A stretch of 64,000 nt of DNA from Acutalibacteraceae bacterium (GCA_963618495.1 CAVESF010000008.1:2749-66748); one strand, 5' to 3'; positions 13,109 to 37,144 are shown, counted from the stretch's first letter. A program made the numbers and translations. Notes: generated by a model not told the origin, from the letters alone.

Positions 13109-15559
13109 ATGATTTTATCAATGAAATGGCTTTCCGACTTCGTTGATTGCTCGGATATAAATATAAAGAAATATTGCGACAGAATGACCGATACAGGCTC
13201 CAAAGTCGAAGGCTATGAGCTTCTCGGCGAAGAGATAGAAAATGTCCGCGTAGGTCTGATAAAAAAGATTGAGCAGCATCCCGATGCGGAGCGCCTCGTC
13301 ATCTGTCAGGTTGATATGGGCAGCCGTATGCTCCAGATTGTAACGGCAGCAAAGAATGTTTTCGAGGGCGCTTATGTTCCCGTAGCCATGTCTCCCGAGG
13401 GAGAAAAGACAGTAGCCAAGCTAGCGCACGGTGTGGAGATAAAGACAGGCAAGCTCCGCGGCGTTGTTTCCGAGGGAATGTTCTGCTCCATAGAGGAGCT
13501 GGGACTCACCACGCACGATATGCCTTTCGCCGCGACAGACGGCATCCTCATACTCAATGACGAAAATCTCGACGGCAGAACCTTTGCCCCGGGCGATGAC
13601 ATACGCGATGTTCTCGGTATGCGCGATACGGCTGTGGAATTTGAAATTACGCCGAACCGCCCCGATTGCCTTTCCGTCATCGGTCTTGCGAGAGAAAGCG
13701 CGGCAAGCTTTGACCGCCACCTCACGCTTCCCATGCCGAAAGTCACCGAGTCGGGCGACGATATAAAAAATTATCTCGACGTCTCTATTTCCGATACGGA
13801 AAAGTGCATGCGTTACAGTGCGCGCGTTATAAAGAATGTAAAGATTGCTCCTTCTCCGCTCTGGCTGAGAATGCGTCTGCGCGCAAGCGGCGTCCGCCCG
13901 ATAAACAATATCGTCGATATCACAAACTATGTAATGCTCGAATATGGTCAGCCCATGCATGCATTTGATTATTCCTGCCTCACAGGAAAGAAAATAGATG
14001 TGCGCACAGCAGGCGATAAGGAAGAATTCGTCACTCTCGACAATAACAAGCGCGAGCTTACTTCCGATATGCTCGTGATTGCGGACAGCGTGCGTCCCGT
14101 CGCCATTGCAGGCGTAATGGGCGGCGCAAACAGCGAGATAGAAGATAATACAAACACAGTCGTTTTCGAATCCGCCGCTTTCCTCGGAAGCTCCGTCCGC
14201 GTAACGGCAAAAAAGCTGAATATGCGCACGGAAAGCTCCGCCCGCTTTGAAAAGGGACTTGACTACGAGCAGACAGTCGCCGCTCTCGAGCGCGCCTGCG
14301 AACTTGTGACAATGCTCGGCGCGGGAGAAGTCGTAAACGGAATGATAGATGTTTACCCGCATAAAAAAGAAATCTCCACGGTAAAATTCGAGCCGGAAAG
14401 AATGAATCGCTTCCTCGGAATCAATATCACGAGAGAAGAAATGGTAAAGATTCTCGAAAAGCTTGATTTCAGGGTAGATGGCGATACGATAACGGTTCCT
14501 TCCTATCGTGACGATGTCCGCATGATGAACGATGTGGCGGAAGAAGTCGTCCGTATCTACGGCTACAACGAAATAGAGTCCGGCACGATGACAGTTCCCA
14601 TGCTCGTTGGCGGTCTTACCGAAGAGCAGAAATTCAAAAAGGACCTAAATAATCTCCTCTGCGGCTTCGGTCTCTGGGAGATATGGACATATTCTTTCAT
14701 GTCGGCAAAGCTCTATGATAAGATAGGTCTTGCCGCAGATGACCCGCGTAGAAAATCCGTCGAGATAATGAATCCTTTCGGTGAGGATACAAAGACCATG
14801 CGCACCGTTGCTCTTCCCTCCATGCTCTCCATCCTTGAGCTGAACTGCAAAAACAAGAGTGCCGAAAATGCCGCTTTCTATGAACTGGCAAAGGTATTTA
14901 TCCCGCGCGAGGGCGTAGTTACAAACATTCACGGACTCGAGGGCGTTCTCCCCGATGAAAGAATAAAGATAAGCATCGGTCTCTATAATGCAGGCGATTT
15001 CTACAGAATGAAAGGCATCTGCGAAGGCATACTCAAATTTGCCGGAATTGAAAACGCTTCATATAAGGCAAATGCAAATGAGCCGACATTCCATCCTGGC
15101 AGATGCGCCGATATCTTTGCTTCCGACGGCATCCGTCTCGGAACATTCGGCGAGCTTCATCCGATAATCGCAAAGGAAAATTACGGCTTCGATGCTCCCG
15201 TAATGCTTGCGGAACTTGATTTCGCAGAAATATTCGCTCATGCGAGAAAGACCTGCAAATATCGCCCGATTCCGAAATTCCCCGCTACGACAAGAGACTT
15301 CTCATTCGTATGCGATGAAAATATCGAAGTCGGCACGATTGAGGACGTTATGCGTGCAAGCGGCGTGAAGCTTATCGAAGGTATCAAACTCTTTGATGTA
15401 TACAAGGGCGCGCAGCTTCCCGCAGGCAAGAAGAGCGTTTCGTTCTCCGTTTCGCTCCGCGCTCCCGACCGTACTCTCACGGTAGAGGAAGCCGATAAGG
15501 CGGCAAAGAAGATTCTCTCCGCCATCGAGCACGAACTCGGCATCACAATAAGACAGTAA
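13109..15559 (+). CDS. pheT: Phenylalanine--tRNA ligase beta subunit
   Basis: 816 aa. N-terminus M(ILSM)KWLSDFV, tRNA-binding, B3/4, B5 and FDX-ACB regions in the usual order, 20 nt after pheS. Confidence 0.95.
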   Translation: MILSMKWLSDFVDCSDINIKKYCDRMTDTGSKVEGYELLGEEIENVRVGLIKKIEQHPDAERLVICQVDMGSRMLQIVTAAKNVFEGAYVPVAMSPEGEKTVAKLAHGVEIKTGKLRGVVSEGMFCSIEELGLTTHDMPFAATDGILILNDENLDGRTFAPGDDIRDVLGMRDTAVEFEITPNRPDCLSVIGLARESAASFDRHLTLPMPKVTESGDDIKNYLDVSISDTEKCMRYSARVIKNVKIAPSPLWLRMRLRASGVRPINNIVDITNYVMLEYGQPMHAFDYSCLTGKKIDVRTAGDKEEFVTLDNNKRELTSDMLVIADSVRPVAIAGVMGGANSEIEDNTNTVVFESAAFLGSSVRVTAKKLNMRTESSARFEKGLDYEQTVAALERACELVTMLGAGEVVNGMIDVYPHKKEISTVKFEPERMNRFLGINITREEMVKILEKLDFRVDGDTITVPSYRDDVRMMNDVAEEVVRIYGYNEIESGTMTVPMLVGGLTEEQKFKKDLNNLLCGFGLWEIWTYSFMSAKLYDKIGLAADDPRRKSVEIMNPFGEDTKTMRTVALPSMLSILELNCKNKSAENAAFYELAKVFIPREGVVTNIHGLEGVLPDERIKISIGLYNAGDFYRMKGICEGILKFAGIENASYKANANEPTFHPGRCADIFASDGIRLGTFGELHPIIAKENYGFDAPVMLAELDFAEIFAHARKTCKYRPIPKFPATTRDFSFVCDENIEVGTIEDVMRASGVKLIEGIKLFDVYKGAQLPAGKKSVSFSVSLRAPDRTLTVEEADKAAKKILSAIEHELGITIRQ

Positions 15560-15567
15560 AAGAATGG

Positions 15568-15600
15568 AATCCCCCGAAAGCCTTGTGCCATCGGGGGATT
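15568..15600 (+). terminator. pheST terminator
   Basis: AATCCCCCGA ... TCGGGGGATT hairpin followed by a T-rich tail. Confidence 0.8.
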
Positions 15601-15642
15601 TTCTATTTTATACAAAGGTATATTTTCTCTTTTTGTATGCAA

Positions 15643-15670
15643 AAAGGCAGACGTTTTCACGCCTGCCTTT
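15643..15670 (-). terminator. Terminator of the mdh-to-PQ-loop operon
   Basis: AAAGGCAG / CTGCCTTT stem. On the minus strand it is followed by TTTTTGCATAC, 15 nt after the stop of 15685..15990. Confidence 0.6.
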
Positions 15671-15684
15671 CGCTTTACATTCTC

Positions 15685-15990
15685 TTATTTTGCCTGTGCG
15701 TCGGCAAGTTCATCGAGCTTCTTATTTCTGAAATAGAGCGCAACATCTATAGAGATTTCTATGAAATTGAGCACATAGAAGAAGAAACTGAGATAGAAGA
15801 GGAAGCCGGAGGCTCCGCCTACTGTCTGTATAATCTTTCTCGTGATGCCGCATGCATAGCCTATGAGCAGGAAAACCTCAAAGAAAAGGCTCTTGCCCTT
15901 TGCCGTGCGCGAAACGAGTGATTTTCTTATCGAAATAGGCCATGAAAGACCGAAACAGAATATTGTCAAAGCCTCAAGTAAATCTACCAT
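15685..15990 (-). CDS. Small 3-TM membrane protein, PQ-loop/SemiSWEET-like
   Basis: 101 aa with three predicted helices. The motif after TM1, WPISIRKSLVSRTAKGKS, resembles the PQ-loop signature PQxxxNxxxKSxxGxS. RBS AGAAGGTG is present, and the gene starts 16 nt after the stop of the flavoprotein gene. Confidence 0.45.
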   Translation of the reverse strand: MVDLLEALTIFCFGLSWPISIRKSLVSRTAKGKSLFFEVFLLIGYACGITRKIIQTVGGASGFLFYLSFFFYVLNFIEISIDVALYFRNKKLDELADAQAK

Positions 15991-16005
15991 TATTAAACAC
16001 CTTCT

Positions 16006-17607
16006 TTAATTTTGTTTTCTGCGGTAATCGGGAAGCAGCTTCGGCGAAACAGCATCTGTTTCTATACCTGCGGCTTCTCTTTCCGCATCAAATTTTGTTA
16101 TATGCTCAAGCGTAAGCTTTCCTGCATTTACGCTCTTTGCCTGTTCTGCCGCGTTCTTGCCGGCACTTCTGCCGAAAACGATGATATCAAGCAGTGAATT
16201 GCCCATCAAACGGTTGCGCCCGTGGATTCCGCCTACAGCCTCGCCCGCAACATAGAGATTTTCTACATTTGTGGTCATGCCGTTTACATTGATATCGAGA
16301 CCGCCGTTCTGATAATGAAGCGTGGGATAAACAAGAATCGGCTCCTTGCGGATATCTATGCCGTAACTTGCGAACATACGCATCATCGCGGGAATTCTGC
16401 GCTCTATCGTGCCCTCGCCGCCGATAGCTTCTATCATCGGCGTATCGAGCCAGACAGCCTCGCCGCTACCTGTATTGACACCCTCGCCGCGGTCGGAGCA
16501 TTCGCGGATTATGGAAGCCGCCGCAACATCGCGCGTCTCAAGCGGATGCATGAATACCTTGCCGTCGCGGTTTACGAGCTTCGCACCGAGCGAACGCACC
16601 TTTTCCGTTACGAGCGCACCGAAAATCTGCTCGGGATAAGCCGCGCCTGTCGGATGATACTGGAGCGTATCGGCATAGAGGAGCTTTGCGCCTACGCGAT
16701 AGCCGAGAACAAGGCCGTCGGCTGTTGCACCGTAATGGTTCGATGTCGGGAAGCCCTGATAATGCATTCTTCCCGCGCCGCCTGTCGCGATGATGACCGT
16801 CTTTGCACGGGCAACCATCAGTTCATGCGTTTCCATATTCATGAGAACCGCGCCTGCCGCCTTGCCGTTTTCATCGAGGATAAGCTCTATTGCCGCTGTG
16901 AAATCGACTACGGGAATACCTCGGTTGAGTACCTCATCGCGCAGAGTTCTCATTATCTCGGCGCCTGAATAGTCCTTTGCCGCATGCATACGCTTGCGCG
17001 ATGTTCCGCCGCCGTGAGTTGTTATCATTGTGCCGTCGGGTGCCTTGTCAAACTCCACGCCGAGGTCATTGAGCCATTCTATAGCCTCGGGCGCATCGCA
17101 AACGAGCTTTGCAAGCAGTTCGCGCTTTGCAGCGTAGTGACCGCCGCCGAAAGCATCGACAAAATGGATAGCAGGAGAATCATTTGGCTTATCAGCCGCC
17201 TGAATGCCGCCCTCTGCCATCATCGTATTGGCATCGCCTATGCGCAGCTTGGTGACAATCATCGTCTTTGCACCGGCATTGTCCGCTTCTATCGCCGCGG
17301 AAGCACCCGCGCCGCCGCCGCCGATGATAAGCACATCGACATCATATGCAATATCAGAGAGATCTATGTCGCTCGCCTTTATGCGGCTGTGCGCCTCAAG
17401 CATTTCGCAGAGCTCATGCGGAACAGCCTCGCCCTTGTTTGCGCCGATTCTGAGAGTTGCAAATTCGCTCTTCTTATAGTCGGGATGATAAGCCGCGAGA
17501 AGCGCGTCCTTCTCATCCGCCGTCATGCGGGCAGGCTCATATGCGATATTTTCTTTTCTTGCGGCTTCGACAGCGGCAAGAGATTCCTGAAATTCCTTTG
17601 AATACAT
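16006..17607 (-). CDS. Fumarate reductase/succinate dehydrogenase-family flavoprotein, soluble type (non-covalent FAD predicted)
   Basis: 533 aa. The FAD fold DVLIIGGGGAGASAAIEA begins near residue 90. Family motifs LQYHPTG, TEKVR, LETRD, HYQNGG and HGRNRLMGNSL are present. The covalent-FAD site reads DANT instead of RSHT. Confidence 0.8.
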   Translation of the reverse strand: MYSKEFQESLAAVEAARKENIAYEPARMTADEKDALLAAYHPDYKKSEFATLRIGANKGEAVPHELCEMLEAHSRIKASDIDLSDIAYDVDVLIIGGGGAGASAAIEADNAGAKTMIVTKLRIGDANTMMAEGGIQAADKPNDSPAIHFVDAFGGGHYAAKRELLAKLVCDAPEAIEWLNDLGVEFDKAPDGTMITTHGGGTSRKRMHAAKDYSGAEIMRTLRDEVLNRGIPVVDFTAAIELILDENGKAAGAVLMNMETHELMVARAKTVIIATGGAGRMHYQGFPTSNHYGATADGLVLGYRVGAKLLYADTLQYHPTGAAYPEQIFGALVTEKVRSLGAKLVNRDGKVFMHPLETRDVAAASIIRECSDRGEGVNTGSGEAVWLDTPMIEAIGGEGTIERRIPAMMRMFASYGIDIRKEPILVYPTLHYQNGGLDINVNGMTTNVENLYVAGEAVGGIHGRNRLMGNSLLDIIVFGRSAGKNAAEQAKSVNAGKLTLEHITKFDAEREAAGIETDAVSPKLLPDYRRKQN

Positions 17608-17620
17608 TTCCCTGCCCTCC

Positions 17621-18295
17621 TTATTTTTCTATATCTCTGTTGTTGTAGAGTTCTTTCATTTCCTCGATGGGCTTACCCATAAGCGCTTCGATAAGCTCGG
17701 TGAAAGTGCCGTCGTTTATCTCTTTGACTCTGTTTTTGAGATGCTCGGATTTCGGCGCGAGATACTTGCCGTTGAGTCTGCGGGCGAGCATAGCCACCTG
17801 CGGATGGGATATCCCCGCAGGGCAACGGGAGGAGCATACTCCGCACATCACGCAGTCAAAGGATTCCTCGGCGCATTTATCAAATTCGCCGCGCTGAGCA
17901 TATGCGATATACTGCATGACATTGAGTCCCTGCGTACAGCTTTTTGTGCACGCATTGCAACCTACGCAGGCATATATCTCGGGATAAAGCTGCATCATTA
18001 TCTGCTCTGTGGGCTTTATCTTCTCGATATCGTAAACCTGCTTTACAAGCGGGAAGAAAGGCAGGGTGGCAACATACATATTGTTTTCCACCTTGGTCTG
18101 GCAGGCAAGGCAGGTTTTCAGTTCGCGCTCGCCCTTTATGCGGTAAATCGTGGCGCATGCGCCGCAGAAGCCGTTTCGGCAACCGCAACCGCGCACGAGC
18201 TGATAGCCCGCATATTCCATGGCGCGCATTATGGTCAGATTATCCGGCACGCTGTATTTCTTTCCGAATAAATAAATATCTATCATATTTTCCAT
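17621..18295 (-). CDS. SdhB/FrdB-type iron-sulfur subunit (2Fe-2S plus two Cys clusters)
   Basis: 224 aa. N-terminal CGCRNGFCGAC...CLAC (2Fe-2S), then CVGCNACTKSC and CVMCGVCSSRCP. No CCG domain. Confidence 0.75.
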   Translation of the reverse strand: MENMIDIYLFGKKYSVPDNLTIMRAMEYAGYQLVRGCGCRNGFCGACATIYRIKGERELKTCLACQTKVENNMYVATLPFFPLVKQVYDIEKIKPTEQIMMQLYPEIYACVGCNACTKSCTQGLNVMQYIAYAQRGEFDKCAEESFDCVMCGVCSSRCPAGISHPQVAMLARRLNGKYLAPKSEHLKNRVKEINDGTFTELIEALMGKPIEEMKELYNNRDIEK

Positions 18296-18310
18296 GCTAT
18301 TTTTCCTCCA

Positions 18311-19144
18311 TCAATATTCACTGGGAAGCTCGTCCAGCTCATCGCAACGGAATACCGGTCCGTCCTTGCAGACATATTTTGCGCCGACATTGCATCTGCC
18401 GCACTTTCCTATGCCGCATTTCATGCGAAGCTCCAGCGTGGTATAAACCTGCGTCTTGTCAAAGCCGAGCTCCTGAAGCCCTGCGAGTGTGAACTTTATC
18501 ATTATAGGAGGTCCGCAGAGTATCGCTATCTTATCCGTAGAGAAGCCGAGCTCTTTTACATAGTTCGGAACGAAGCCCACATGACCTGTCCACTCGGGCT
18601 GTTCGCGGTCTATCGTGAGATGCACGGAAACGCCCGCGTCTTTTGCCCATTCGTCGATTATCTCTTTGTAATCCACGAGGTCCTGCATGCTGCGCGAACC
18701 GTAAACCACATCTATCTTGCCGTAGCGGTCGCGGTAGTGGCGGCAGTAATTGATGACGGAGCGGAGCGGAGCAAGTCCGATACCTCCGGCAATGAAGAGC
18801 ATATCATGACCGACAAATTCCGTATCCACGGGAAAAGGCTTGCCGTAGGGTCCTCTTATCGTTATCTGCTGACCGACCTCCATGGAGTGAAGCCACTCGG
18901 TTACACAGCCGCATTTCTTGATGGAAAATTCCATATATTCTTCGTTTGTGGGCGAGGAGGTTATGGAGAACATAGCCTCGCCGACGCCCGGGATGGAGAG
19001 CATGGCGCACTGACCCGGCTTATGCTCAAAAGCTTTTTTGCCGTCGGGAGTTACCACGCGGAATGTCTTGACATCGGGCGTATCTATGCGGATATCCGTC
19101 ACTATGCCAATGGCGGGAATAAGCGGTTCTCTCATATCAGCCAT
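18311..19144 (-). CDS. FNR-like FAD/NAD(P)H-binding oxidoreductase with C-terminal 2Fe-2S (FlxA / AsrB / HydG / PyrK-like)
   Basis: 277 aa. Nucleotide-binding motif FIAGGIGLAPL and C-terminal CGIGKCGRCNVG. It overlaps the upstream gene by 8 nt. Confidence 0.75.
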   Translation of the reverse strand: MADMREPLIPAIGIVTDIRIDTPDVKTFRVVTPDGKKAFEHKPGQCAMLSIPGVGEAMFSITSSPTNEEYMEFSIKKCGCVTEWLHSMEVGQQITIRGPYGKPFPVDTEFVGHDMLFIAGGIGLAPLRSVINYCRHYRDRYGKIDVVYGSRSMQDLVDYKEIIDEWAKDAGVSVHLTIDREQPEWTGHVGFVPNYVKELGFSTDKIAILCGPPIMIKFTLAGLQELGFDKTQVYTTLELRMKCGIGKCGRCNVGAKYVCKDGPVFRCDELDELPSEY

Positions 19145-20162
19145 TTTTCTCTCCTCCTAACTTTTTCATTACCTTGACTATGTTCATCTGGATAGGACAT
19201 TTTGAAAGGCATCTGCCGCAACCGACGCAGGAGAACATACCGTCGTTATTTGTCGGGAAATACACGAGCTTGTGCATGAATCTCTGGCGGAAACGCTCAA
19301 GCTGGGTGAGTCTGGGCTGACCTGCCGACATCTTGGTGAAATCGGAATACATGCAGGAATCCCAGCAACGGAAGCGCTTTACACCGTGACCCGTATTGAA
19401 ATCCTTGATATCATAGCACTGGCAGGTGGGGCAGACAAAAGTGCAGGTGCCGCATCCGAGACACGACTGCGAAAGCTCCTTCCACTCGGGTGCGCCGAAA
19501 AATTCATCGGTCTTGCCCGCTCCGAAAGCGTCTGCCGAGAGGGAAGCAAGCGGGAGCTTCTTCATGCGCTCCGCTGTCTGCTTCTTCTGCTCGGAAACGG
19601 GTGCTTCGTCCGCTTCCTCTGTGATATTTTCGAGTCCCGCGAGAAGCTTTTCGCCCTTTTCCGTTTTTGCCTGCATATAGAGCGCGCCGTCTGCTTTCCA
19701 GCAGGCGATATCGCCCGCGGGGTCAGCCGCGTCTATGCCGAATGTATGACAGAAGCAGGTTTCTGCGGGGCGTGTGCAGGCAAGCGACATGATTACCGCA
19801 TGCTCGCGGCGATTCTTATAATAAGAATCCTGCGGCTCGGCAAGGAAAACCTTATCAAGCACATCAAAGCTGCGCACATCGCAGGCGCGCACGCCGAATA
19901 CCACAAAATCCTCGCATTCTTTTCTTGTATCTATTATCTCGATGGTCTTTCCCTCTGTTTTGAAATCCATCAGATTTTCCGTCTGCGGGAAAAAGAAATC
20001 CTTTGCGCTGCGGACGGTATTGAGCGCCTCGGAGAGGGTCTTGCCCTCCTCCCATTTTTCAAATTTCGCGCCCGCCTTTGTATCTGCAGGAAGATAGAGC
20101 GTCTCATTCTGCGATATTGCGGAGAAGAGAGCATTCAGCTTGTCAAGTGAAATTTTACGCAT
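19137..20162 (-). CDS. 4Fe-4S dicluster protein (FlxB / AsrA / HydB-like)
   Basis: The start is set at ATG 20160-20162 (MRKISLDKLN) after GGAAAGGGGAGAG. Cys motifs are CLGCGTCTFVCPTCQC and CVGCGRCLSKCP. Confidence 0.7.
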   Translation of the reverse strand: MRKISLDKLNALFSAISQNETLYLPADTKAGAKFEKWEEGKTLSEALNTVRSAKDFFFPQTENLMDFKTEGKTIEIIDTRKECEDFVVFGVRACDVRSFDVLDKVFLAEPQDSYYKNRREHAVIMSLACTRPAETCFCHTFGIDAADPAGDIACWKADGALYMQAKTEKGEKLLAGLENITEEADEAPVSEQKKQTAERMKKLPLASLSADAFGAGKTDEFFGAPEWKELSQSCLGCGTCTFVCPTCQCYDIKDFNTGHGVKRFRCWDSCMYSDFTKMSAGQPRLTQLERFRQRFMHKLVYFPTNNDGMFSCVGCGRCLSKCPIQMNIVKVMKKLGGEKNG

Positions 20163-21144
20163 TGTTCTCTCCCCTTTCCACAGCCTCGGAGGGCTCAATA
20201 TCCTCTGTTGTGTAATTAACTATCGGAGCGCGGCTTCCGACCTCGGCTCCCGCCTGATAATCGCCGTAGAAACGGTCGATATCGAGAATAAACTTGCGGT
20301 TAAGCAGGTGAAGCGGAATATGCTGAGGGCAAACGCGCGAGCATTCGCCGCAGTCCGTGCATCTGCCGACTACATGGAATGCGCGTATGATATGGAACAT
20401 CTTCTCTTCGAATGAGTCTGATGCCGCCTTGTTTTCAACGCCCGAATCGGGGTTGTCGAAAACGCACTTTTCGCAGGTGCATGCGGGACAGACATCGCGG
20501 CACGCATTGCAACGGATGCAACGCGAAAGCTCCCCCTGCCAGAAAGCAAATCGCTCGTCCGGCGTCATCTTTTCGAGCTTTTCCACCTCGTCGAAGCGGG
20601 TGTTTTCGATAACATCGCCGTCCTCGCCAAGCAGTTCGTCGTAGGCGACATGCTTTTTCGATTTGCAGCAACGGCATCTCTCGGAGATAAGCTCCGCGCG
20701 CGGGAAAGTTTTCTTTCCGTCATAGAGCGTATCTATGACAACGCTGTCTCCCTCTTCGGAAACGGAGAGTATACCCTCGGCATGAGCCTTGAGCGTATTT
20801 ACATCCATCATGCCGTCGCAGGGAACGCCGATGACATATACCTTTTCGCGGTCGAAGCGGTGTTCGGTGAGCAGCTGATTGAAGCTGTATGTATCGCAGG
20901 GCTTGAGGAAAACGAGAACCTTTCCCTCGCCTGCCGTCTCTTTTATCAGATATTTCGAGAAGTTTGCGCCGCAGAAGCCGTTCCAGACGAAATTCTTTTC
21001 TATCTCCCCGGCACTGTGAAATACAGCGGGAGTGATATCATAGTCAAATTCGCCCTTGTGCCAGCCGAGCACACGGTTTACCGTGCCGTCGGCAAGGAGC
21101 GCTTTCGCGCGGGATATGAGAATATCTCTTTTTATTTCTTGCAT
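20155..21144 (-). CDS. 4Fe-4S dicluster protein (FlxC-like)
   Basis: 329 aa. Cys motifs are CIRCNACRDVCPACTC and CTDCGECSRVCP. It overlaps both neighbours. Confidence 0.65.
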   Translation of the reverse strand: MQEIKRDILISRAKALLADGTVNRVLGWHKGEFDYDITPAVFHSAGEIEKNFVWNGFCGANFSKYLIKETAGEGKVLVFLKPCDTYSFNQLLTEHRFDREKVYVIGVPCDGMMDVNTLKAHAEGILSVSEEGDSVVIDTLYDGKKTFPRAELISERCRCCKSKKHVAYDELLGEDGDVIENTRFDEVEKLEKMTPDERFAFWQGELSRCIRCNACRDVCPACTCEKCVFDNPDSGVENKAASDSFEEKMFHIIRAFHVVGRCTDCGECSRVCPQHIPLHLLNRKFILDIDRFYGDYQAGAEVGSRAPIVNYTTEDIEPSEAVERGENNA

Positions 21145-21566
21145 CTCAGATCCTCCAGTCTCTTGTTTTCGCCCAGAGAAGCAACCTTCTCTGCGAAATC
21201 ATTCATCGTAGCGGCAAATTTTGCGCCCTCTGCCGCGCTCACCCATTCAACTCTCGTGCGTTCTCTCTCTATGCCGAGATAATCGAGCATCGAGAAAAGC
21301 AGAGCCATACGGCGGCGCGTATAATAGTTGCCCGAGGTATAGTGGCAGTCACCGGGGTGACAGCCGCAGAGTATCACGCCGTCAGCTCCGCGCTGAAATG
21401 CGCGAAGTATGAACATGGGATTTACTCTGCACGAGCAGGGCACACGGATTATCTTTACATTTGCCGGATAGTTAAGTCTGTTGTTTCCCGCGAGGTCTGC
21501 GCCCGCATAGGAACACCAGTTGCAGCAGAATGCCACAATAAGCGGCTTATATTCGTTTACTTGCAT
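21132..21566 (-). CDS. mvhD: MvhD/FlxD-type hydrogenase iron-sulfur subunit (methyl-viologen-reducing hydrogenase delta-like)
   Basis: The start is ATG 21564-21566 (MQVNEYKPLIVAFCCNWCSYAGAD) after GGAGGTGGA. Characteristic motifs CCNWC, RVPCSCR and LCGCHPGDCHY are present. The track ORF adds 75 unsupported codons overlapping hdrA. Confidence 0.85.
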   Translation of the reverse strand: MQVNEYKPLIVAFCCNWCSYAGADLAGNNRLNYPANVKIIRVPCSCRVNPMFILRAFQRGADGVILCGCHPGDCHYTSGNYYTRRRMALLFSMLDYLGIERERTRVEWVSAAEGAKFAATMNDFAEKVASLGENKRLEDLRCKK

Positions 21567-23551
21567 ATTGCGTCCACCTCCGCCATTATCTGTCTGCTCG
21601 TGAATCCGCGCAGATCCATCGCACCGGACATACAAGCCACCGTGCAGGCTCCGCAGCCCTGACATACCGCTTCGTTTACAGAAGCAACGCGGCGAACCTT
21701 CGTCGTTCTGTCGGGCATTCTGAATTCTTTTTCTATATATGTTATCGCGCCGTAGGGGCAAACCTTTTCGCAGGTTGAGCAACCGTTGCACATCATCTCA
21801 TCCGAGTGAGCGACGCAGGGATTGCCTGTCAGCTTGTCCTTGCAGAGCAGTCCGATAACCTTGGAAGCCGCCGCTCCCGCCTGAGAAACCGTCTCTGGGA
21901 TATCCTTGGGTCCCTGGCATGTTCCAGAGAGGAAAACGCCTGCCGTCGGGCTTTCCACAGGGCGAAGCTTCGGATGAGCTTCCGTGAAGAAATCGTTTGT
22001 ATCCATGCTTGCCGTCAGCATCGTTGCGAGGTGACGGGCTGATTTATCAGGCTCGATTGCTGCCGCGAGAACCACGAGATCGGCATCTATATGGAGCTGA
22101 TTTCCGTAGATGAGGTCGGAGCCCTGAACCTTGAGCTTCTCTCCCTCGGGCGAAACCTTGCCCACCATGCCCTTGATGTAGTGCACACCGTATTCTTCTA
22201 CGGCACGACGGTAAAATTCATCGAAGTTCTTACCCGGGGTACGGACATCTATGTAGAAAACATAAACCTCTGTGCCGGGATACTTGTCGCGGATGAGCAT
22301 CGCGTGCTTTGCCGTATACATGCAGCAGATCTTGGAGCAGTATTCCTTGCCCTTGTCCGCGCACGCCGCGCAGCGTGAGCCTACGCACTGAACGAAAACT
22401 ATCGTGTGCGGATGCTTGCCGTCGGAAGGGCGCAGAAGCGTGCCGCCCGTGGGACCTGCCGCATTCATCAGGCGCTCCAGCTCGAGCGAAGTAATGACAT
22501 CCTTTGACTGCGAATAAGCAAATTCATCGAATTTCTCCATGGAGATGGGATTGAAGCCCGTAGCCACAACTATGGCACCGTACTTCTCTTCCACAAATTC
22601 GTCCTTCGCCTTGTAATCTATGGCTCCCGCGCCGCATACCTTGGAGCAAACGCCGCACTTGCCCGTTTTCAGCATCATGCAGTAGTTCGGGTCTATCGTT
22701 GCCACCTTCGGCACAGCCTGCGCAAAAGGAATGTATATCGCGCTTCTGTTGTTCATACCGAGGTTGAACTCATTGGGTACTTTCTTCTGCGGACACTTTT
22801 CCGTGCAGAGTCCGCAACCTGTGCATATCTCTTCTTTTACATACCTTGCCTTGCGCTTTATCGTGACATCGAAGTTGCCGACAAATCCCTTTACAGCGGT
22901 CACCTCAGAATATGAGAAAATTCGTATCTTCTCGTTCTGAGCGACATCCACCATCTTCGGCGTGAGGATACATGCGGCGCAGTCGAGCGTCGGGAATGTC
23001 TTATCCAGCTGAGCCATCTTGCCGCCGATAGTCGGCTTTGTCTCGACTATATCAACTGGGAATCCCGCATCGGCTATATCGAGTGCTGTCTGAATGCCCG
23101 CAATACCGCCGCCGATAACGAGCGCACGCTTTGTCACCGGACTTTCTCCCGGGGTCAGCGGCGCATTGAGATTTACCTTTGCCACAGCCGCCTTGCCGAG
23201 GATTATCGCCTTTTCCGTGCCGGTAGGCATATCCTTATGTACCCATGAGCACTGCTCACGGATATTTGCTATTTCCACCATGTATGGGTTCAGCCCCGCA
23301 CCTGCCGCCGTCTTGCGGAAAGTCGCCTCATGCATACGCGGAGAGCATGAGCAGACCACGATACCCGAGAGCTTATGCTCGGCTATAGCGTCCTTTATCA
23401 TGTTCTGTCCTGCCTGAGAGCACATATACTGATAGTCCGTGGCGAATACAACGCCCGGCTCATGAGAGAGAGCCGCCGCTACCGCCTTTACATCCACCGT
23501 TCCCGCGATATTCGTACCGCAGTGGCAGACAAAAACACCTATTCTTTGCAT
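21557..23551 (-). CDS. hdrA: Heterodisulfide reductase subunit A-like flavoprotein
   Basis: 664 aa. N-terminus MQRIGVFVCHCGTNI, FAD fold VIGGGIAGIQTALDIA, motif CVGSRC...YCSKICC, and two C-terminal ferredoxin motifs (CNGCSTCEKVCP, CQGCGACTVAC). Confidence 0.9.
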   Translation of the reverse strand: MQRIGVFVCHCGTNIAGTVDVKAVAAALSHEPGVVFATDYQYMCSQAGQNMIKDAIAEHKLSGIVVCSCSPRMHEATFRKTAAGAGLNPYMVEIANIREQCSWVHKDMPTGTEKAIILGKAAVAKVNLNAPLTPGESPVTKRALVIGGGIAGIQTALDIADAGFPVDIVETKPTIGGKMAQLDKTFPTLDCAACILTPKMVDVAQNEKIRIFSYSEVTAVKGFVGNFDVTIKRKARYVKEEICTGCGLCTEKCPQKKVPNEFNLGMNNRSAIYIPFAQAVPKVATIDPNYCMMLKTGKCGVCSKVCGAGAIDYKAKDEFVEEKYGAIVVATGFNPISMEKFDEFAYSQSKDVITSLELERLMNAAGPTGGTLLRPSDGKHPHTIVFVQCVGSRCAACADKGKEYCSKICCMYTAKHAMLIRDKYPGTEVYVFYIDVRTPGKNFDEFYRRAVEEYGVHYIKGMVGKVSPEGEKLKVQGSDLIYGNQLHIDADLVVLAAAIEPDKSARHLATMLTASMDTNDFFTEAHPKLRPVESPTAGVFLSGTCQGPKDIPETVSQAGAAASKVIGLLCKDKLTGNPCVAHSDEMMCNGCSTCEKVCPYGAITYIEKEFRMPDRTTKVRRVASVNEAVCQGCGACTVACMSGAMDLRGFTSRQIMAEVDAICK

Positions 23552-23568
23552 CGCTTGCCTCTCCTCCC

Positions 23569-23961
23569 TTATTTCGAATATTTGCGCATCGCGGAAACGA
23601 TAGCCTGCTGCGGCATATCGTCATCGAGAAGCGCGGGAATATCATCCGCTGTCATGTGATTTGCGCCCTTTTCGCGTATCGCGAGCAGGCGTACCGCCTC
23701 GACAAGCTTTGCGGGTTCGACGCCGCGGGGACATCTGTCCACGCAGGCAAAGCAAGAGAGGCATTTATATACCGATTCCGACTTCATCAGCGTTTCGATA
23801 TCGCCCGTTTCGACCATATATACAAACTGGTGCGGGTGATATTCCATTTCGCCGTATGAGGGACAGGTGCCGGAGCATTTGCCGCATCGCATGCATTTCA
23901 GCGGGTTGACGCCGCTCATGCGGAGCGCCTGCTCGCGGCGGAGTTCGTTTTTACTGCTCAT
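23569..23961 (-). CDS. hdrC: Heterodisulfide reductase subunit C-like (2 x 4Fe-4S)
   Basis: 130 aa. Cys motifs are CMRCGKCSGTCP and CLSCFACVDRCP. Confidence 0.85.
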   Translation of the reverse strand: MSSKNELRREQALRMSGVNPLKCMRCGKCSGTCPSYGEMEYHPHQFVYMVETGDIETLMKSESVYKCLSCFACVDRCPRGVEPAKLVEAVRLLAIREKGANHMTADDIPALLDDDMPQQAIVSAMRKYSK

Positions 23962-24757
23962 TTTGTTCCTCCTTTATGCCAAGAGCCTCTGTGAGAAGCT
24001 CGGTAAAGTAAACTACGGGAAGCTCGCTTCCGCTCTTTACGAGATTGTATTTGCAAAGCGGGCATGCTGTCACTATCAGGTCTGCGCCGTGGGCGGCGGC
24101 GCTCTCGGAAACTGCAGAGGACTTTTTCTTAGCCGAGTCCGCATCCTCAAGCGCGACATAACCGCCGCAGCATTCGTTTCTCATGGGGTAGACCACCGGC
24201 TCCGCTCCGAGTGCGCGGATGAAATCCTCCATTATGCGGGGATTTTCCGCATCGTCAAAAGCCATCACCTTGGAGGGACGCAGAAGCATGCAGCCGTAAT
24301 AAGCGGCTATCTTCTTGCCCGAGAGAGGATTCACTACGGCTTCCTTTACCTTGTCGAAGCCGACGACATCGCGCAGAAGCTCGAGATAGTGATAAATCTC
24401 CGTCTCACCGTTATAGGGTACGGCAGGATTTTTATCCTGCGACATATAGAGATTGACCTTGGCGGCGAAATCCGCATCGGTTTTCATCGCGTGGTTTGTC
24501 TGTTTTATTACATTGTGGCAAGCCGAACATACCGTAACAAGCGGATCACCGGCATCTCTTGCGTAAGCAAGTGCGCGAACGCTCGATAGCTTGGTGGCAA
24601 TTTCGTCCTTTGCGGAGACGAAAACACCGCCGCAGCACTGCCAGTCTCTGACCTCGCAAAGCTCTATTCCGAGTTTTTCCGCGCTCTTTCGCGCATATCG
24701 GTCGAGGTCCTTTGCTTTTGTACGGAGAGTACAGCCCGGAAAATAACTGACTTTCAT
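23951..24757 (-). CDS. hdrB: Heterodisulfide reductase subunit B-like with two complete CCG domains
   Basis: 268 aa. The first CCG domain is PGC...QCCGG...CSAC and the second is YGC...ECCGG...CPLC. Confidence 0.85.
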   Translation of the reverse strand: MKVSYFPGCTLRTKAKDLDRYARKSAEKLGIELCEVRDWQCCGGVFVSAKDEIATKLSSVRALAYARDAGDPLVTVCSACHNVIKQTNHAMKTDADFAAKVNLYMSQDKNPAVPYNGETEIYHYLELLRDVVGFDKVKEAVVNPLSGKKIAAYYGCMLLRPSKVMAFDDAENPRIMEDFIRALGAEPVVYPMRNECCGGYVALEDADSAKKKSSAVSESAAAHGADLIVTACPLCKYNLVKSGSELPVVYFTELLTEALGIKEEQNEQ

Positions 24758-24781
24758 TCTTTACCTCCGATAAACCGTATA

Positions 24782-26164
24782 TCAGACCATCTCTTCGGGA
24801 TGGAATACCTCATCGAATTTTTCAGCCGTGAGGAAGCCGAGTTCAACACACGCTTCTTTCAGCGAAATATTGTCCTTATATGCTTTCTTCGCCGTCTTTG
24901 CCGCGTTTTCATATCCGATATAGGGATTGAGCGCGGTGACAAGCATGAGCGAATTGTGCAGATTGTGATACATCTTGTCCTTATTTGCCGTGATGCCGAC
25001 AGCGCAGTTATTATTGAACGAAACTATCGCCTCGGCAAGCAGGCGCGCGGACTGCAGAAAATTGTATGCGGCGACGGGCATGAACACATTCAGCTCGAAG
25101 TTGCCCTGAGAAGCCGCCATTCCGACAGCGACATCATTTCCCATAACCTGAACGGCTACCATCGTCACTGCCTCGCACTGGGTGGGATTCACCTTACCGG
25201 GCATTATCGATGAGCCGGGCTCGTTTTCGGGAATATGAATCTCTCCCAGCCCGTCGCGCGGACCGCTTGCGAGCCAGCGGACATCGTTTGCTATCTTCAT
25301 CATATCGCAGGCGGTCGCCTTTATCGCTCCGTGAGCAAATACAAGCTCGTCCTTTGATGTGAGCGCATGGAATTTGTTCTCCGCCGTTACAAAAGGCTTG
25401 CCTGTGAGCGCGGCGACCTTTGCGGCTACAAGCTCGGAAAAGCCTTTCGGCGCATTGAGACCCGTGCCGACAGCCGTTCCGCCGAGCGCAAGCTCATGGA
25501 GCGGCTTTGCCGCCATGCGCAGAAGCTCCGCGTCGCGCTCGAGACTGCTTCTCCAGCCGGAAATCTCCTGGCTGAATTTTATCGGCGTGGCATCCTGAAG
25601 GTGCGTTCTGCCGGATTTGACTATTCCCTCGTTCTCTGCCTCAAGGCGCCTGAATGTAGCTATCAGCAGTTCTATTGCGGGGAGCAGCTTGTCCTCTATC
25701 GCAATCACGGCGGAAATATGCATTGCCGTCGGGAATGTGTCGTTGGAGGACTGACTCATATTGATATCGTCGTTCGGATGGCAGAGCTTTTCGCCCGCTA
25801 TCTGATTTGCGCGGTTTGCTATAACCTCGTTCGCATTCATATTGGACTGCGTACCCGAGCCCGTCTGCCATACGACAAGCGGAAAATTGTCATTGAGCTT
25901 GCCGGCGATTACCTCATCGCAGGCGGCGGAAATGGCTTCGAGCTTCTTTGCCGTCATCTTCTCGGGCTTCAGCTCCGAGTTTGCGAGCGCCGCCGCTTTT
26001 TTGAGTATGCCGAAAGCATGCGTTATCTCGCGCGGCATCGTTTCGATATCGACGCCTATCTTGAAGTTTTCATGGCTCCTCTGTGTCTGCGCCGCCCAGA
26101 GCTTGTCGGCAGGCACTTTCATTTCACCCATTGAATCGTGTTCTATACGGTATTCCATCTTCAT
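24782..26164 (-). CDS. fumC: Class II fumarate hydratase
   Basis: 460 aa with the signature GSSIMPGKVNPTQCEA. Conservation is typical of fumarase/aspartase-family proteins. Confidence 0.93.
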   Translation of the reverse strand: MKMEYRIEHDSMGEMKVPADKLWAAQTQRSHENFKIGVDIETMPREITHAFGILKKAAALANSELKPEKMTAKKLEAISAACDEVIAGKLNDNFPLVVWQTGSGTQSNMNANEVIANRANQIAGEKLCHPNDDINMSQSSNDTFPTAMHISAVIAIEDKLLPAIELLIATFRRLEAENEGIVKSGRTHLQDATPIKFSQEISGWRSSLERDAELLRMAAKPLHELALGGTAVGTGLNAPKGFSELVAAKVAALTGKPFVTAENKFHALTSKDELVFAHGAIKATACDMMKIANDVRWLASGPRDGLGEIHIPENEPGSSIMPGKVNPTQCEAVTMVAVQVMGNDVAVGMAASQGNFELNVFMPVAAYNFLQSARLLAEAIVSFNNNCAVGITANKDKMYHNLHNSLMLVTALNPYIGYENAAKTAKKAYKDNISLKEACVELGFLTAEKFDEVFHPEEMV

Positions 26165-26176
26165 CGCTCCTTAATT

Positions 26177-27121
26177 TCAGATTTCGATGCTGTTTATAAC
26201 ATTTTTCAGAGTTTCCGCGCTGTAGCGAAGCTTCGATATCTCTTCATCCGTGAGAGGAATATTCACCTTTCCGCGGATACCGCCGTCTCTGACAAGCGTG
26301 AGCGTGCTGAGGCAGACATCTTCTATTCCGTATTCGCCGTGCATCATCGTGGAAACCGTCATCGTCGTATCGAGACCGCCGAGCAGGCACTTGCAGATGT
26401 GACATACGGAAACGGATACGGCATAGAATGTCGCGCCCTTGCGGGCAATGACTCTTCCGCCGGATTTTCTTACATACTGCTCAACCTCATCGAGGTCAAG
26501 CTCGGGACGTTCGATGCCGGGAGTGATAATGAGTCTGCCGCAGTCCTTTATCGGAACGTTTGAAATATTGGCTACCGACCACGGAATGAAAGAAGAGTCG
26601 CCATGCTCACCGAAAACATAGGCATGAACATTGCTCTGATTGATATCATAGTATTCCGAGAGTCTCGCACGCAGGCGTGCGGTGTCGAGTATCGTTCCCG
26701 AGCCGATGATATGATTTTCGGGAATGTCCGAAAACTTGTGGAAAGTATACGTCAGGATGTCAACGGGATTGCTGACTATTATGTATACGGCGTTCGGTGC
26801 GTATTTTGTAATCTCGGGGATAATGCTCTTTGTGATGTTTACATTCGTCTGGGCAAGCTCAAGTCTTGTCTGACCGGGCTTTCTTGCGATACCCGATGTG
26901 AGGATGACTATGTCGGAATCAGCCGCATCGCGATAGTCGCCCGCATAAACCGAGCATGCATTGCAGAAAGGTGTTCCCTGGCGGATATCGAGTGCTTCGC
27001 CGAGCGCTTTCTCGCTGTTGATGTCGATCATAACGATCTCAGAGGCAAGCCCCATGACTGTAAGCGTATAGGCAATGGTGGAACCTACGCTTCCGGTTCC
27101 GATGATGGAAATTTTGTTCAT
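26177..27121 (-). CDS. mdh: LDH-like malate dehydrogenase (Arg at the Gln102/Arg102 specificity position)
   Basis: 314 aa. Rossmann motif IIGTGSVGS. The substrate loop GIARKPGQTRLEL reads R where LDHs have GANQKPGETRLDL. It sits directly upstream of fumC. Confidence 0.7.
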   Translation of the reverse strand: MNKISIIGTGSVGSTIAYTLTVMGLASEIVMIDINSEKALGEALDIRQGTPFCNACSVYAGDYRDAADSDIVILTSGIARKPGQTRLELAQTNVNITKSIIPEITKYAPNAVYIIVSNPVDILTYTFHKFSDIPENHIIGSGTILDTARLRARLSEYYDINQSNVHAYVFGEHGDSSFIPWSVANISNVPIKDCGRLIITPGIERPELDLDEVEQYVRKSGGRVIARKGATFYAVSVSVCHICKCLLGGLDTTMTVSTMMHGEYGIEDVCLSTLTLVRDGGIRGKVNIPLTDEEISKLRYSAETLKNVINSIEI

Positions 27122-27199
27122 GACTTTTTTCTCCTGTTAAGTAGTTTTTTCAGCCTTGATTTTTGTCGTATATTATATAACAACATTATTTCAGTGTAT

Positions 27200-27228
27200 A
27201 TTATATCGCAGTTTGTCGCATTTGTAAA
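27200..27228 (-). promoter_or_regulatory. SigA-type promoter of the mdh-fumC-hdr-flx-frd operon
   Basis: On the minus strand: TTTACA (27223-27228), 17-nt spacer, TATAAT (27200-27205), about 75 nt upstream of the mdh ATG. Confidence 0.55.
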
Positions 27229-27413
27229 GTCCCTTTTTTTCATATCAGTTATATATATATCGATATATGTAGGAACTATACGAAAAAAGGTGAAAAAACG
27301 CCCTTTTTTGCAGGGTAAAATTTCCCCGCCGCGGCATGATTTTCGCAATTTCCGTGATATTGCATCTGTACGGCAGAGACGGATTTCGGCGAGAGAAAAA
27401 GTGAATATAATAA

Positions 27414-27447
27414 AATGCAGGCAATCCGCGAGAGGATTGCCTGCATT
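27414..27447 (-). terminator. Terminator of the 7-gene ABC/surface-protein operon
   Basis: Perfect 14-bp stem AATGCAGGCAATCC/GGATTGCCTGCATT with a 6-nt loop. On the minus strand it is followed by TTTATTATATT. Confidence 0.8.
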
Positions 27448-27552
27448 CATTAAAACCGATATTACTGAAAAGTTTAAGTTTTCATAAATGTCTTTACCCA
27501 ATAAAAACATTTACCTCTTCACTTTTTCGGTCTGCACTTTTTTAGCAGCTGA

Positions 27553-28605: not shown

Positions 28606-28622
28606 TTATATCCCCTCCCCTC

Positions 28623-29636: not shown

Positions 29637-29654
29637 TTATATTCACCTCTCCTT

Positions 29655-33044: not shown

Positions 33045-33062
33045 TTCGTTCTCCCTCCTTGC

Positions 33063-35207: not shown

Positions 35208-35226
35208 TATTATATATACCTCCTGC

Positions 35227-36111: not shown

Positions 36112-36112
36112 A

Positions 36113-37075: not shown

Positions 37076-37104
37076 TTGATTTTCTCCTTTATCAAGTATT
37101 TCTT

Positions 37105-37137: not shown

Positions 37138-37144
37138 GTGTTGA

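Follow-up and report, generated by a model that had tools for sequence, protein, structure and literature searches.

The 64,000-nucleotide stretch of Acutalibacteraceae bacterium DNA analysed here (GCA_963618495.1, CAVESF010000008.1:2749-66748; hereafter the window) carries on its minus strand twelve consecutive genes in which a malate dehydrogenase-like gene and a fumarase gene stand together with a soluble two-subunit fumarate reductase (FrdB and FrdA, jointly FrdBA) and a complete Hdr-Flx electron-transfer module. The twelve genes make up one operon that serves reductive succinate formation from oxaloacetate in an Oscillospirales-type, quinone-independent gut Clostridium, and we regard this assignment of the pathway as highly probable. 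A preliminary description of this DNA had already read the operon as leading from oxaloacetate through malate and fumarate to succinate, and that reading is borne out by conserved catalytic residues, by a nine-gene synteny kept at 53 of 54 loci, and by the transporters or phosphoenolpyruvate (PEP) carboxykinase encoded at the 3' end. The same evidence, with an Hdr-Frd adjacency kept in a differently arranged locus (L083, below), makes a functional link between FrdBA and Hdr-Flx well supported. That the products form one bifurcating Hdr-Flx-FrdBA assembly is the interpretation towards which the gene content inclines us, by a small degree.

The predicted fumarate reductase and its partners

The flavoprotein is recognisable as a fumarate reductase at the level of single residues. 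Its residues 88 to 497 align with E. coli FrdA, with the FAD Rossmann motif GGGGAG at residue 96, and the dicarboxylate-site residues of the E. coli enzyme (H232, T234, E245, R248, R287, H355 and R390) correspond to H318, T320, E335, R338, R359, H431 and R466; all seven are invariant in an alignment of the family that includes members down to 38% identity. In the column of His44, the residue of E. coli FrdA that forms 8-alpha-N3-histidyl FAD, an equally invariant asparagine (Asn127) is found, and the FAD is therefore probably bound non-covalently. Non-covalent FAD goes with one-way fumarate reduction, which, in addition to the residues and the fold, suggests that the flavoprotein may be a one-way fumarate reductase. 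An AlphaFold2 model (predicted local distance difference test, pLDDT, 87.8; predicted template modelling score, pTM, 0.88) has E. coli FrdA (1kf6_A) as its top Foldseek match (E = 8.9e-34, TM 0.71), and the top 50 matches are all FrdA, SdhA or flavocytochrome c3. An N-terminal extension of about 88 aa is helical and modelled confidently, and no match to Succ_DH_flav_C (PF02910) was found in the protein, its alignment to FrdA stopping near residue 497. The best NCBIfam model is TfrA (NF004900), at 332 bits and well under its cut-off of 718, followed by SdhA (283 bits) and nadB (272 bits), and public annotation says “FAD-binding protein” and nothing more specific. The protein has just three cysteines, of which Cys67 is visibly not conserved in the family alignment.

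The iron-sulfur subunit encoded beside it has weak N-terminal matches to SdhB and TfrB. It gave no match to the CCG domain (PF02754) and has no 3Fe-4S-type motif, since both of its ferredoxin motifs have four cysteines, and thus neither the 3Fe-4S/quinone end known from SdhB nor the end at which TfrB oxidises thiols is present in it. A natural fusion of 727 aa (P0123 in alignment A1), in which an FrdB-like protein forms the N-terminus of the flavoprotein, supports the view that FrdB and FrdA would act as one enzyme. No membrane anchor gene was found among the ORFs (open reading frames) of the operon; this, the catalytic residues and the fold match uphold the earlier description of a soluble pair of SdhB/FrdB and SdhA/FrdA type.

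The Hdr-Flx module is complete, and the Pfam and NCBIfam domains of HdrB, HdrC, HdrA, MvhD/FlxD, the two poly-ferredoxins and the FlxA-like protein agree with the labels given to them in the preliminary description. HdrA aligns through residues 3-661 with residues 5-648 of the bifurcating methanogen HdrA 5odc_A (E = 7e-203), and end to end with the methanogen HdrA structures as a group (5odc, 8rvu and 7bkb; 606-679 bits), a similarity that nearly equals that of methanogen HdrAs to one another. HdrB scores 110-133 bits against methanogen HdrB, with 133 bits to 8rvv_B, and a read-out of its motifs confirms the earlier statement that both CCG motifs are intact. Ferredoxin-coupled bifurcation is plausible on these grounds, being consistent with a full-length HdrA of methanogen type and with the intact motifs of HdrB. 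FlxD is the most conserved gene of the operon (median 92% identity), and its start is likely the ATG at 21566 rather than a GTG at 21791. FlxB matches the NCBIfam models ShyB, HydB and AsrA, in each case under the cut-off, and sulfhydrogenase 1 subunit beta (9nez_B) with 148 bits, and the FlxA-like protein is the presumed entry point for NADH. The NCBIfam model of TfrB is matched piecewise by three proteins of the operon, FrdB at model positions 19-94, HdrC at 123-220 and HdrB at 262-486, from which it follows that methanogen TfrB is a fusion of three module types that are here encoded by separate genes.

At the head of the operon, the dehydrogenase exceeds the cut-offs of the NCBIfam models for L-lactate dehydrogenase (LDH; NF000824, 353 vs 339 bits; TIGR01771, 330 vs 304) and stays below those for malate dehydrogenase (MDH; NF004863, 270 vs 283; TIGR01763, 205 vs 352). 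It carries the motif xRKPGQ(S/T)R, here GIARKPGQTR, which places an arginine at the equivalent of position 102, and this arginine and the LDH-like GEHGDS motif are conserved in 49 of 49 operon-linked orthologues. Position 102 reportedly discriminates the substrate, in work ascribed to Wilks et al. in 1988. Most simply, the first gene probably encodes an LDH-clade enzyme turned towards oxaloacetate, and automated annotation will mislabel it. Of the Arg102-type malate dehydrogenase announced earlier, the Arg102-type motif has stood and the MDH identity has not by NCBIfam cut-offs, where the L-LDH models pass instead. The class II fumarase label is secure, TIGR00979 being matched above its equivalog cut-off. 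Among the gene labels as a whole, then, the domain assignments hold in Pfam and NCBIfam, “malate dehydrogenase” without qualification is weaker than was stated, and the PQ-loop label of the last gene falls (see below).

Conservation, boundaries and surroundings of the operon

With one genome taken per species, at least 591 relatives of the flavoprotein were found, of which the best 80, 72-92% identical, were examined; linkage was counted at the 54 species-level loci among these 80 that have at least 9.6 kb upstream. The genes hdrB-hdrC-hdrA-flxD-flxC-flxB-flxA-frdB-frdA are contiguous and in the same order at 53 of the 54, joined by fumC at 51 and by both fumC and mdh at 49. How often frdAB-type genes adjoin hdrABC-mvhD-flx in Clostridia had been raised in the preliminary description, and the answer is nearly always among these loci. 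The best 80 loci include Yeguia hominis NSJ-40 (92% identity) and many Clostridia, as well as genomes labelled Acutalibacteraceae, Oscillospiraceae, Ruminococcus, Congzhengia and Christensenellaceae, and in gut and rumen metagenomes members of the flavoprotein family are very numerous. At the nearest locus the DNA is only about 80% identical; the HdrA, FlxD, FlxA and FrdB proteins are 92-99% identical and the HdrB, FlxC and FlxB proteins 77-81%. Relative to three related genomes, strong purifying selection acts on all twelve genes (ratio of non-synonymous to synonymous substitution rates, dN/dS, 0.01-0.125), with synonymous sites saturated.

A more distant locus on a 10-kb contig (L083 811-9771), with a 56%-identical flavoprotein, has the order korDABG-hdrA-mvhD-hdrC-hdrB-frdB-frdA, where kor encodes a 2-oxoacid:ferredoxin oxidoreductase, and no flx genes occur between the genes from korDABG to frdA. 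Because the adjacency of Hdr and Frd is kept in this independently arranged locus, it survives rearrangement. As separate observations, some close relatives have extra genes within the operon, where fumC is followed by a Peptidase_S9 gene and a Lactamase_B_2 gene separates flxA from frdB (L001 998-1720 and 8448-9293; L002 4012-4845), and at L059 a gene of metallo-beta-lactamase fold lies downstream of frdA. A flavoprotein of 43% identity and an adjacent Fe-S subunit (L085 10001-12357; P0135/P0286) occur in a genome labelled Prochlorococcus sp. MIT 1201, where the pair is ringed by short unannotated ORFs; an anaerobe-type fumarate reductase would not be expected in Prochlorococcus.

The twelve ORFs are all co-oriented (15685-27121, minus strand) and are bounded by the best-matching promoter site at one end and a strong terminator hairpin at the other (Table 1), in agreement with the one promoter and one terminator of the preliminary description. 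They are separated by six gaps of 12, 24, 17, 15, 13 and 15 nt and share five overlaps of 11, 10, 13, 8 and 8 nt; the earlier figure of about 25 nt at most for the gaps is right, and the overlaps, given as 4-13 nt, are 8-13 nt by the coordinates. Each gene starts with ATG behind a GGAGG-like ribosome-binding site (12 of 12). The promoter at 27228-27200 is the top consensus match within 15000-28000 (13 kb), and the start is predicted from the consensus match alone. The same 13 kb hold 26 promoter-like matches, against 12.6 +/- 3.6 expected from shuffled sequence, and 23 terminator-like matches, against 13.6 +/- 3.5. The surplus lies mostly within coding regions and is treated as compositional noise. 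As breaks in the operon the internal matches were rejected, being short consensus matches in coding sequence of which none rivals the flanking terminators, and the terminator-like scan of 15000-28000 returned no hairpin inside the operon comparable to either of these. A Rex operator (TTGTTAANNNNTTAACAA, up to three mismatches) was sought for the front of the operon; the window has 0 matches, with 1.8 expected by chance.

Table 1. Features of the operon and its boundaries, in window coordinates.
Feature	Position	Strand	Evidence
Intrinsic terminator of the operon	15643..15670	-	Hairpin of -24.5 kcal/mol, z = -6.35, followed by UUUUU
101-aa three-helix membrane protein, no assigned family	15685..15990	-	No Pfam or NCBIfam family
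FrdA/TfrA-like flavoprotein, 533 aa, predicted catalytic subunit	16006..17607	-	FAD_binding_2, E = 1.6e-68
FrdB-like iron-sulfur subunit, 224 aa	17621..18295	-	Fer2_4, Fer2, Fer4_9; 2Fe-2S and two 4-Cys [4Fe-4S] motifs
FlxA-like protein	18311..19144	-	FAD_binding_6, NAD_binding_1, DHODB_Fe-S_bind (2Fe-2S); NCBIfam HydG and AsrB types
FlxB-like iron-sulfur protein, sulfhydrogenase beta / AsrA type	19137..20162	-	Fer4_22; ATG at 20162
FlxC-like iron-sulfur protein	20155..21144	-	Fer4 dicluster domain, residues 205-276; two CxxCxxCxxxC motifs
MvhD/FlxD-type 2Fe-2S subunit	21132..21566	-	PF02662 FlpD, E = 4.8e-56
HdrA, full length, 664 aa	21557..23551	-	FAD domain plus inserted and C-terminal ferredoxin domains; NCBIfam HdrA2, 786 bits
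HdrC-like subunit	23569..23961	-	Fer4_8 and Fer4_17; two CxxCxxCxxxC motifs; best NCBIfam model CoB_CoM_SS_C
HdrB-like subunit	23951..24757	-	PF02754 in two stretches; two complete CX(n)CCX(n)CXXC motifs, residues 9-80 and 156-235
Class II fumarate hydratase, fumC	24782..26164	-	Lyase_1 and FumaraseC_C; TIGR00979, 698 bits vs cut-off 665
LDH/MDH-family dehydrogenase, probably LDH-clade malate dehydrogenase	26177..27121	-	Ldh_1_N and Ldh_1_C (Pfam)
Sigma-70-type promoter-like site, TTTACA-17-TATAAT	27200..27228	-	11/12 consensus; the first ATG follows after about 70 nt
Strong intrinsic terminator that closes the preceding ABC-transporter operon and bounds the unit at its 5' end	27413..27448	-	15-bp stem with 7 GC pairs, T-rich tail

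The last position of the operon is variable. In the window it is taken by a 101-aa membrane protein that has 2509 homologues, every named one hypothetical, and a dN/dS of about 0.06. Its sole Pfam match is DUF2304 (E = 0.003, under that family's cut-off), and its AlphaFold2 model shows three helices at low confidence (pLDDT 68.8, pTM 0.43), for which a Foldseek search returned no PDB match with E below 3. To our eye the motif SWPISIRKSxVSRTAKGKSL resembles what we take to be the PQ-loop consensus. The earlier label of a 3-TM PQ-loop-like protein has lost its support, as even a lax Pfam search (E <= 10) gave no match to the PQ-loop/MtN3 profiles and no fold match was obtained. At about 48 loci the gene after frdA instead encodes a protein of 400-456 aa whose N-terminus is like those of Asp-Al_Ex proteins, as judged by regular expression and reading of the N-termini, and the family (PF06826) was confirmed by profile for the proteins of L001 and L005. 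About 17 loci, including the window, have the small three-helix protein, one has a Mem_trans carrier, and one in a Clostridia genome (L066) has a GTP-dependent PEP carboxykinase (PF00821, E = 2.7e-167) about 85 nt after frdA, which extends the operon back to the CO2-fixing step. According to the gene table for L001-L082, the slot holds either the small protein or the Asp-Al_Ex transporter, just one of the two, and this alternation suggests that the small protein may have a transport-related role. Asp-Al_Ex is, we believe, the family of the Corynebacterium succinate exporter SucE.

The downstream neighbours of the operon are pheS and pheT on the opposite strand. Upstream of pheS there is a T-box leader (99.4 bits, 11775-11996, plus strand), which indicates that the 509-aa ORF from 11559 over-extends the real pheS start, and a tRNA-Ser (GGA) gene is found at 4456-4547 (plus strand). 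On the other side, 27553-40420 (minus strand) is a long sugar-uptake region. Its genes encode two pairs of ABC permeases and proteins of 1129 aa (DUF5696), 714 aa (Yip1/NHL) and 1091 aa, the last with a solute-binding domain as its C-terminal third.

Proposed electron flow and competing explanations

The route that we propose would start with reduction of oxaloacetate to malate by the LDH-clade dehydrogenase with Arg102, followed by dehydration of malate to fumarate by FumC. Fumarate would then be reduced by soluble FrdBA, with non-covalent FAD and with neither an anchor nor a 3Fe-4S cluster or quinone site. Electrons from NAD(P)H would enter at FlxA and pass through FlxB, FlxC and FlxD to the flavin of HdrA, where they would part: the high-potential electron would most likely travel by way of HdrC and HdrB directly to the clusters of FrdB and on to the FAD of FrdA and to fumarate, and the low-potential electron would leave through the ferredoxin domains of HdrA to ferredoxin. 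The net reaction would be 2 NADH + fumarate + Fd(ox) -> 2 NAD+ + succinate + Fd(red), where Fd is ferredoxin. H2 production or an Rnf-type ion pump could in turn consume the reduced ferredoxin, which would amount to a “fumarate respiration” without quinones, and the succinate may be exported by the product of the last gene or, in most relatives, by the Asp-Al_Ex transporter found in its place. The relevant potentials are -320 mV for NADH, about +30 mV for fumarate and about -450 mV for ferredoxin; by our own arithmetic the mean acceptor potential of about -210 mV, set against -320 mV for NADH, corresponds to roughly -43 kJ/mol for the four-electron reaction.

The sequences themselves show the gene content, the conserved catalytic residues and the tight, conserved linkage; from these we infer complex formation, NADH as the donor, the direct wiring of HdrB to FrdB and bifurcation itself. 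The wiring is favoured by what FrdBA lacks. With no CCG domain in FrdB and just three cysteines in the flavoprotein, a thiol/disulfide shuttle would have no site on the FrdBA side, which argues for direct transfer from cluster to cluster and makes the name “thiol:fumarate reductase”, given to homologues in tubeworm symbionts, a misnomer. The TfrB fusion of methanogens, which stands beside a fumarate-reducing flavoprotein, may serve as a precedent for wiring among FrdB, HdrC and HdrB. More tentatively, and with our confidence a little short of even, the operon might represent a new class of flavin-based bifurcating NADH:fumarate, ferredoxin oxidoreductase, in which the CCG protein HdrB would deliver electrons directly to an SdhB-like subunit with no thiol between, and which could be the main quinone-free route to succinate in hundreds of species of gut and rumen Clostridia.

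Several points weigh against the bifurcating assembly. Disulfide reduction is the established role of the CCG clusters of HdrB, and for a role as pure electron relay we know of no precedent that could be cited. A preference for NADH over NADPH cannot be read from sequence, and NCBIfam thresholds would name the first gene L-lactate dehydrogenase. Neither Rnf nor hydrogenase genes are present in the 64-kb window, the rest of which, scanned for PEP carboxykinase as well without a match, turned up only housekeeping and sugar ABC-transporter genes. Literature and structure searches yielded no purification, assay or solved structure for any member of this complex family, and literature searches for a purified “bifurcating fumarate reductase” had no match, so it still appears, as stated earlier, that an enzyme of this composition has yet to be characterised. 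The reductase also occurs in other company. A 47% homologue from Gammaproteobacteria/Thiotrichales (L084 9366-12891) has frdB-frdA followed by a NuoF-like gene (Complex1_51K and NADH_4Fe-4S domains), with overlapping stops, and might be a minimal NADH:fumarate reductase that draws on the same FrdBA family; a Congzhengia locus has a CitMHS transporter gene, frdB, frdA and a small gene without Hdr-Flx; and other distant FrdBA homologues stand as a pair or alone, again without Hdr-Flx, from which we conclude that Hdr-Flx is not obligatory for the reductase.

These NuoF-linked and stand-alone variants show that the reductase can use other inputs, and that a plain NADH:fumarate reductase would need far less hardware. 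The NuoF-linked variant lends weight to the explanation that the operon encodes a non-bifurcating NAD(P)H:fumarate oxidoreductase in which Flx and Hdr are an electron wire that neither reduces ferredoxin nor conserves energy, as do the strongly exergonic transfer from NADH to fumarate in its own right and the soluble five-subunit NADH-dependent fumarate reductase of Hydrogenobacter thermophilus, for which the account in PMC13147460, as far as it concerns this enzyme, invokes no bifurcation. We nevertheless judge this explanation rather unlikely, because seven extra genes held at dN/dS 0.01-0.125 would be a costly substitute for one NuoF-like subunit, because HdrA keeps its full length, both ferredoxin domains and its closeness to the methanogen proteins, because the variant with kor genes adjoins a ferredoxin-dependent 2-oxoacid oxidoreductase, and because published physiology, in which H2 inhibits succinate formation, fits ferredoxin coupling. 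Transfer in the opposite sense, with ferredoxin as a donor, either in confurcation with NADH or in a ferredoxin:fumarate reductase from which FlxA would offer a side exit to NAD+, would make use of the reversibility in principle of Hdr-type bifurcating modules and would suit sugar-fermenting Clostridia, in which pyruvate:ferredoxin oxidoreductase generates reduced ferredoxin that has to find a sink. At +30 mV, however, fumarate needs no low-potential donor, ferredoxin used in this way would waste energy that Rnf or hydrogenase could conserve, and the published flux balance for Pseudoclostridium thermosuccinogenes assumed transfer from NADH to ferredoxin and not the reverse; we hold this direction of flow to be quite improbable.

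A division into two enzymes, with Flx-Hdr reducing a disulfide and FrdBA acting as a true thiol:fumarate reductase connected to it by a soluble thiol/disulfide carrier, is suggested by the flavoprotein's best NCBIfam model, by the disulfide-reducing CCG motifs that HdrB retains, and by the symbiont literature, which names the homologues tfrAB and allows for a DsrC-like intermediate (PMC11636981). It is improbable in our view, as FrdB without a CCG domain and FrdA with three cysteines, Cys67 not conserved among them, offer no recognisable thiol-oxidising site, the thiol site of methanogen TfrB is its fused CCG half, which here matches the separate HdrB, no gene for a DsrC-like or small thiol carrier is found in the operon or conserved beside it, and the TfrA score lies at less than half of the cut-off. 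That the flavoprotein is instead an L-aspartate oxidase, or another enoate or 2-enoate-like reductase, and the operon part of a different pathway, we consider hardly credible. The nadB score is little below those of TfrA and SdhA, the catalytic residues are common to L-aspartate oxidase, and the public annotation is no more than generic; against this, the gene shares its operon with fumarase and the Arg102 dehydrogenase in 49 of 54 genomes, genes for Asp-Al_Ex, Mem_trans or CitMHS transporters or PEP carboxykinase adjoin it, its product has as partner, and in P0123 as fused domain, an SdhB-like Fe-S protein of a kind that L-aspartate oxidase does not have, and among the structural matches FrdA and SdhA come first, L-aspartate oxidase being absent from the top 50. 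At the position of Glu121, which we take to be typical of L-aspartate oxidase, the aligned residue is apparently His. The L-aspartate oxidase reading was rejected on the operon partners, the SdhB-like subunit, the transporters and the structural matches.

If the assembly does bifurcate, fumarate would join the short list of high-potential acceptors in flavin-based bifurcation, and the energy conservation of quinone-free Clostridia that make succinate would be explained. CCG domains, so far viewed as places of disulfide chemistry only, would have to be seen differently if HdrB were wired directly to FrdB. In the gut succinate is both a key metabolite in cross-feeding and a signal to the host; in the rumen it is a precursor of propionate, and it is also of interest as an industrial target. 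The operon is almost invariant among the best 80 loci, and the cultured gut isolate Yeguia hominis NSJ-40 is one of these, which makes the published hypothesis testable in a mesophile, beyond a thermophile or an uncultured symbiont.

Relation to known systems

Several well-known enzymes share parts with the operon. From complex II the window enzyme differs in having no covalent His-FAD column, Succ_DH_flav_C domain, anchor genes or 3Fe-4S motif. The methanogen MvhAGD-HdrABC complex and its relatives (5odc, 8rvu, 7bkb) match HdrA end to end and also match HdrB, but take electrons from H2 or formate and pass them to CoM-S-S-CoB, whereas here the acceptor is presumably fumarate, reached through FrdBA. 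TfrAB of Methanothermobacter is likewise soluble, with non-covalent FAD and activity with fumarate only, and its TfrB combines the FrdB, HdrC and HdrB module types. TfrB, unlike FrdB, has CCG domains of its own and oxidises CoM-SH and CoB-SH, whereas the only CCG protein in the window is HdrB; compared with TfrA, the window flavoprotein scores under half of the cut-off, has the N-terminal extension of about 88 aa and has no C-terminal domain.

The FlxABCD-HdrABC system of Desulfovibrio vulgaris, reportedly described by Ramos et al. in 2015, has all seven module types found here (FNR-like FlxA, two sulfhydrogenase-beta-like proteins, MvhD-like FlxD, HdrA, HdrB and HdrC). Its gene order is flxABCD-hdrABC, against hdrBCA-flxDCBA in the window, and the high-potential acceptor proposed for it is a protein disulfide (DsrC), in ethanol metabolism, where the window has a fumarate reductase instead; no DsrC-like gene occurs in the window operon or next to it. 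To our knowledge, bifurcation by Flx-Hdr has not been shown with purified enzyme. The five-subunit NADH-dependent fumarate reductase of Hydrogenobacter thermophilus, which has been characterised as soluble and irreversible (Miura et al., 2008, as described in PMC13147460), resembles the window enzyme by that description in being soluble, NADH-dependent and multi-subunit with an SdhA-like catalytic subunit, and differs in that the description in PMC13147460, in what it says of this enzyme, reports no association with Hdr-Flx.

Bifurcation from NADH to fumarate and ferredoxin has been proposed for tubeworm symbionts, where co-expression was shown (Rubin-Blum, 2019, PMC6315080; Mitchell, 2024, PMC11636981). 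In Ca. Endoriftia persephone, the Escarpia symbiont and Thioflavicoccus mobilis, Hdr-Flx, korABCD and “tfrAB” lie in a gene cluster of the reductive tricarboxylic acid cycle (PMC6315080, PMC11636981), so that, as in the operon described here, a soluble fumarate reductase of two subunits is encoded together with flxABCD-hdrABC; in the symbiont system the two are also expressed together. The kor-hdrA-mvhD-hdrCB-frdBA locus (L083) resembles this layout in general. The symbiont system, found in Gammaproteobacteria, serves autotrophic fixation of CO2, and its ferredoxin is consumed by 2-oxoglutarate:ferredoxin oxidoreductase, whereas the window operon is a fermentative succinate branch with mdh and fumC, and the gene order differs. 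A 2026 survey repeats the idea of ferredoxin-coupled fumarate reduction (PMC13147460), and a 2024 preprint linked HdrA of Ruminococcus champanellensis, from STRING, to succinate dehydrogenase/fumarate reductase; the products of this species are acetate and succinate (PMC8865330).

The closest published counterpart is the “succinate operon” of P. thermosuccinogenes, which is also said to be the subject of a 2019 preprint by Koendjbiharie and van Kranenburg. As published, it extends from CDQ83_RS03365 to RS03315 (Koendjbiharie et al., 2020, PMC7282089) and has, in the same order, fumC, seven Hdr-Flx genes, two fumarate reductase genes and a small hypothetical gene, a likeness drawn from order, sizes and the authors' annotation rather than from alignment, with lengths taken from the paper's expression table. 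The flavoprotein gene has 1602 nt and the Fe-S subunit gene 675 nt in both; fumC has 1365 nt there and 1383 nt in the window, hdrB 783 and 807 nt, a five-gene block 5.35 and 5.24 kb, and the last gene encodes about 82 and 101 aa, respectively. Expression of that operon is very high and co-regulated, with five genes merged into one transcript unit, and added H2 abolishes succinate formation (PMC7282089). The co-expressed unit begins at fumC and the adjoining 927-nt gene is expressed about 50-fold lower, so that mdh is apparently outside it. P. thermosuccinogenes is a thermophile of a different order, and the hypothesis put forward for it is identical to ours, NADH-driven and ferredoxin-coupled fumarate reduction (PMC7282089).

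The novelty that the preliminary description had implied for the gene set and for the bifurcation idea is therefore forestalled by the work on P. thermosuccinogenes and on Endoriftia-type symbionts, and the new part is modest. To these published systems the present analysis adds an mdh gene inside the operon, near-universal synteny across a large clade of gut and rumen Clostridia (among the best 80 of at least 591 relatives), a small membrane protein that alternates with an Asp-Al_Ex transporter at the 3' end, a case from residues and fold for a one-way fumarate reductase, and an argument against the thiol shuttle.

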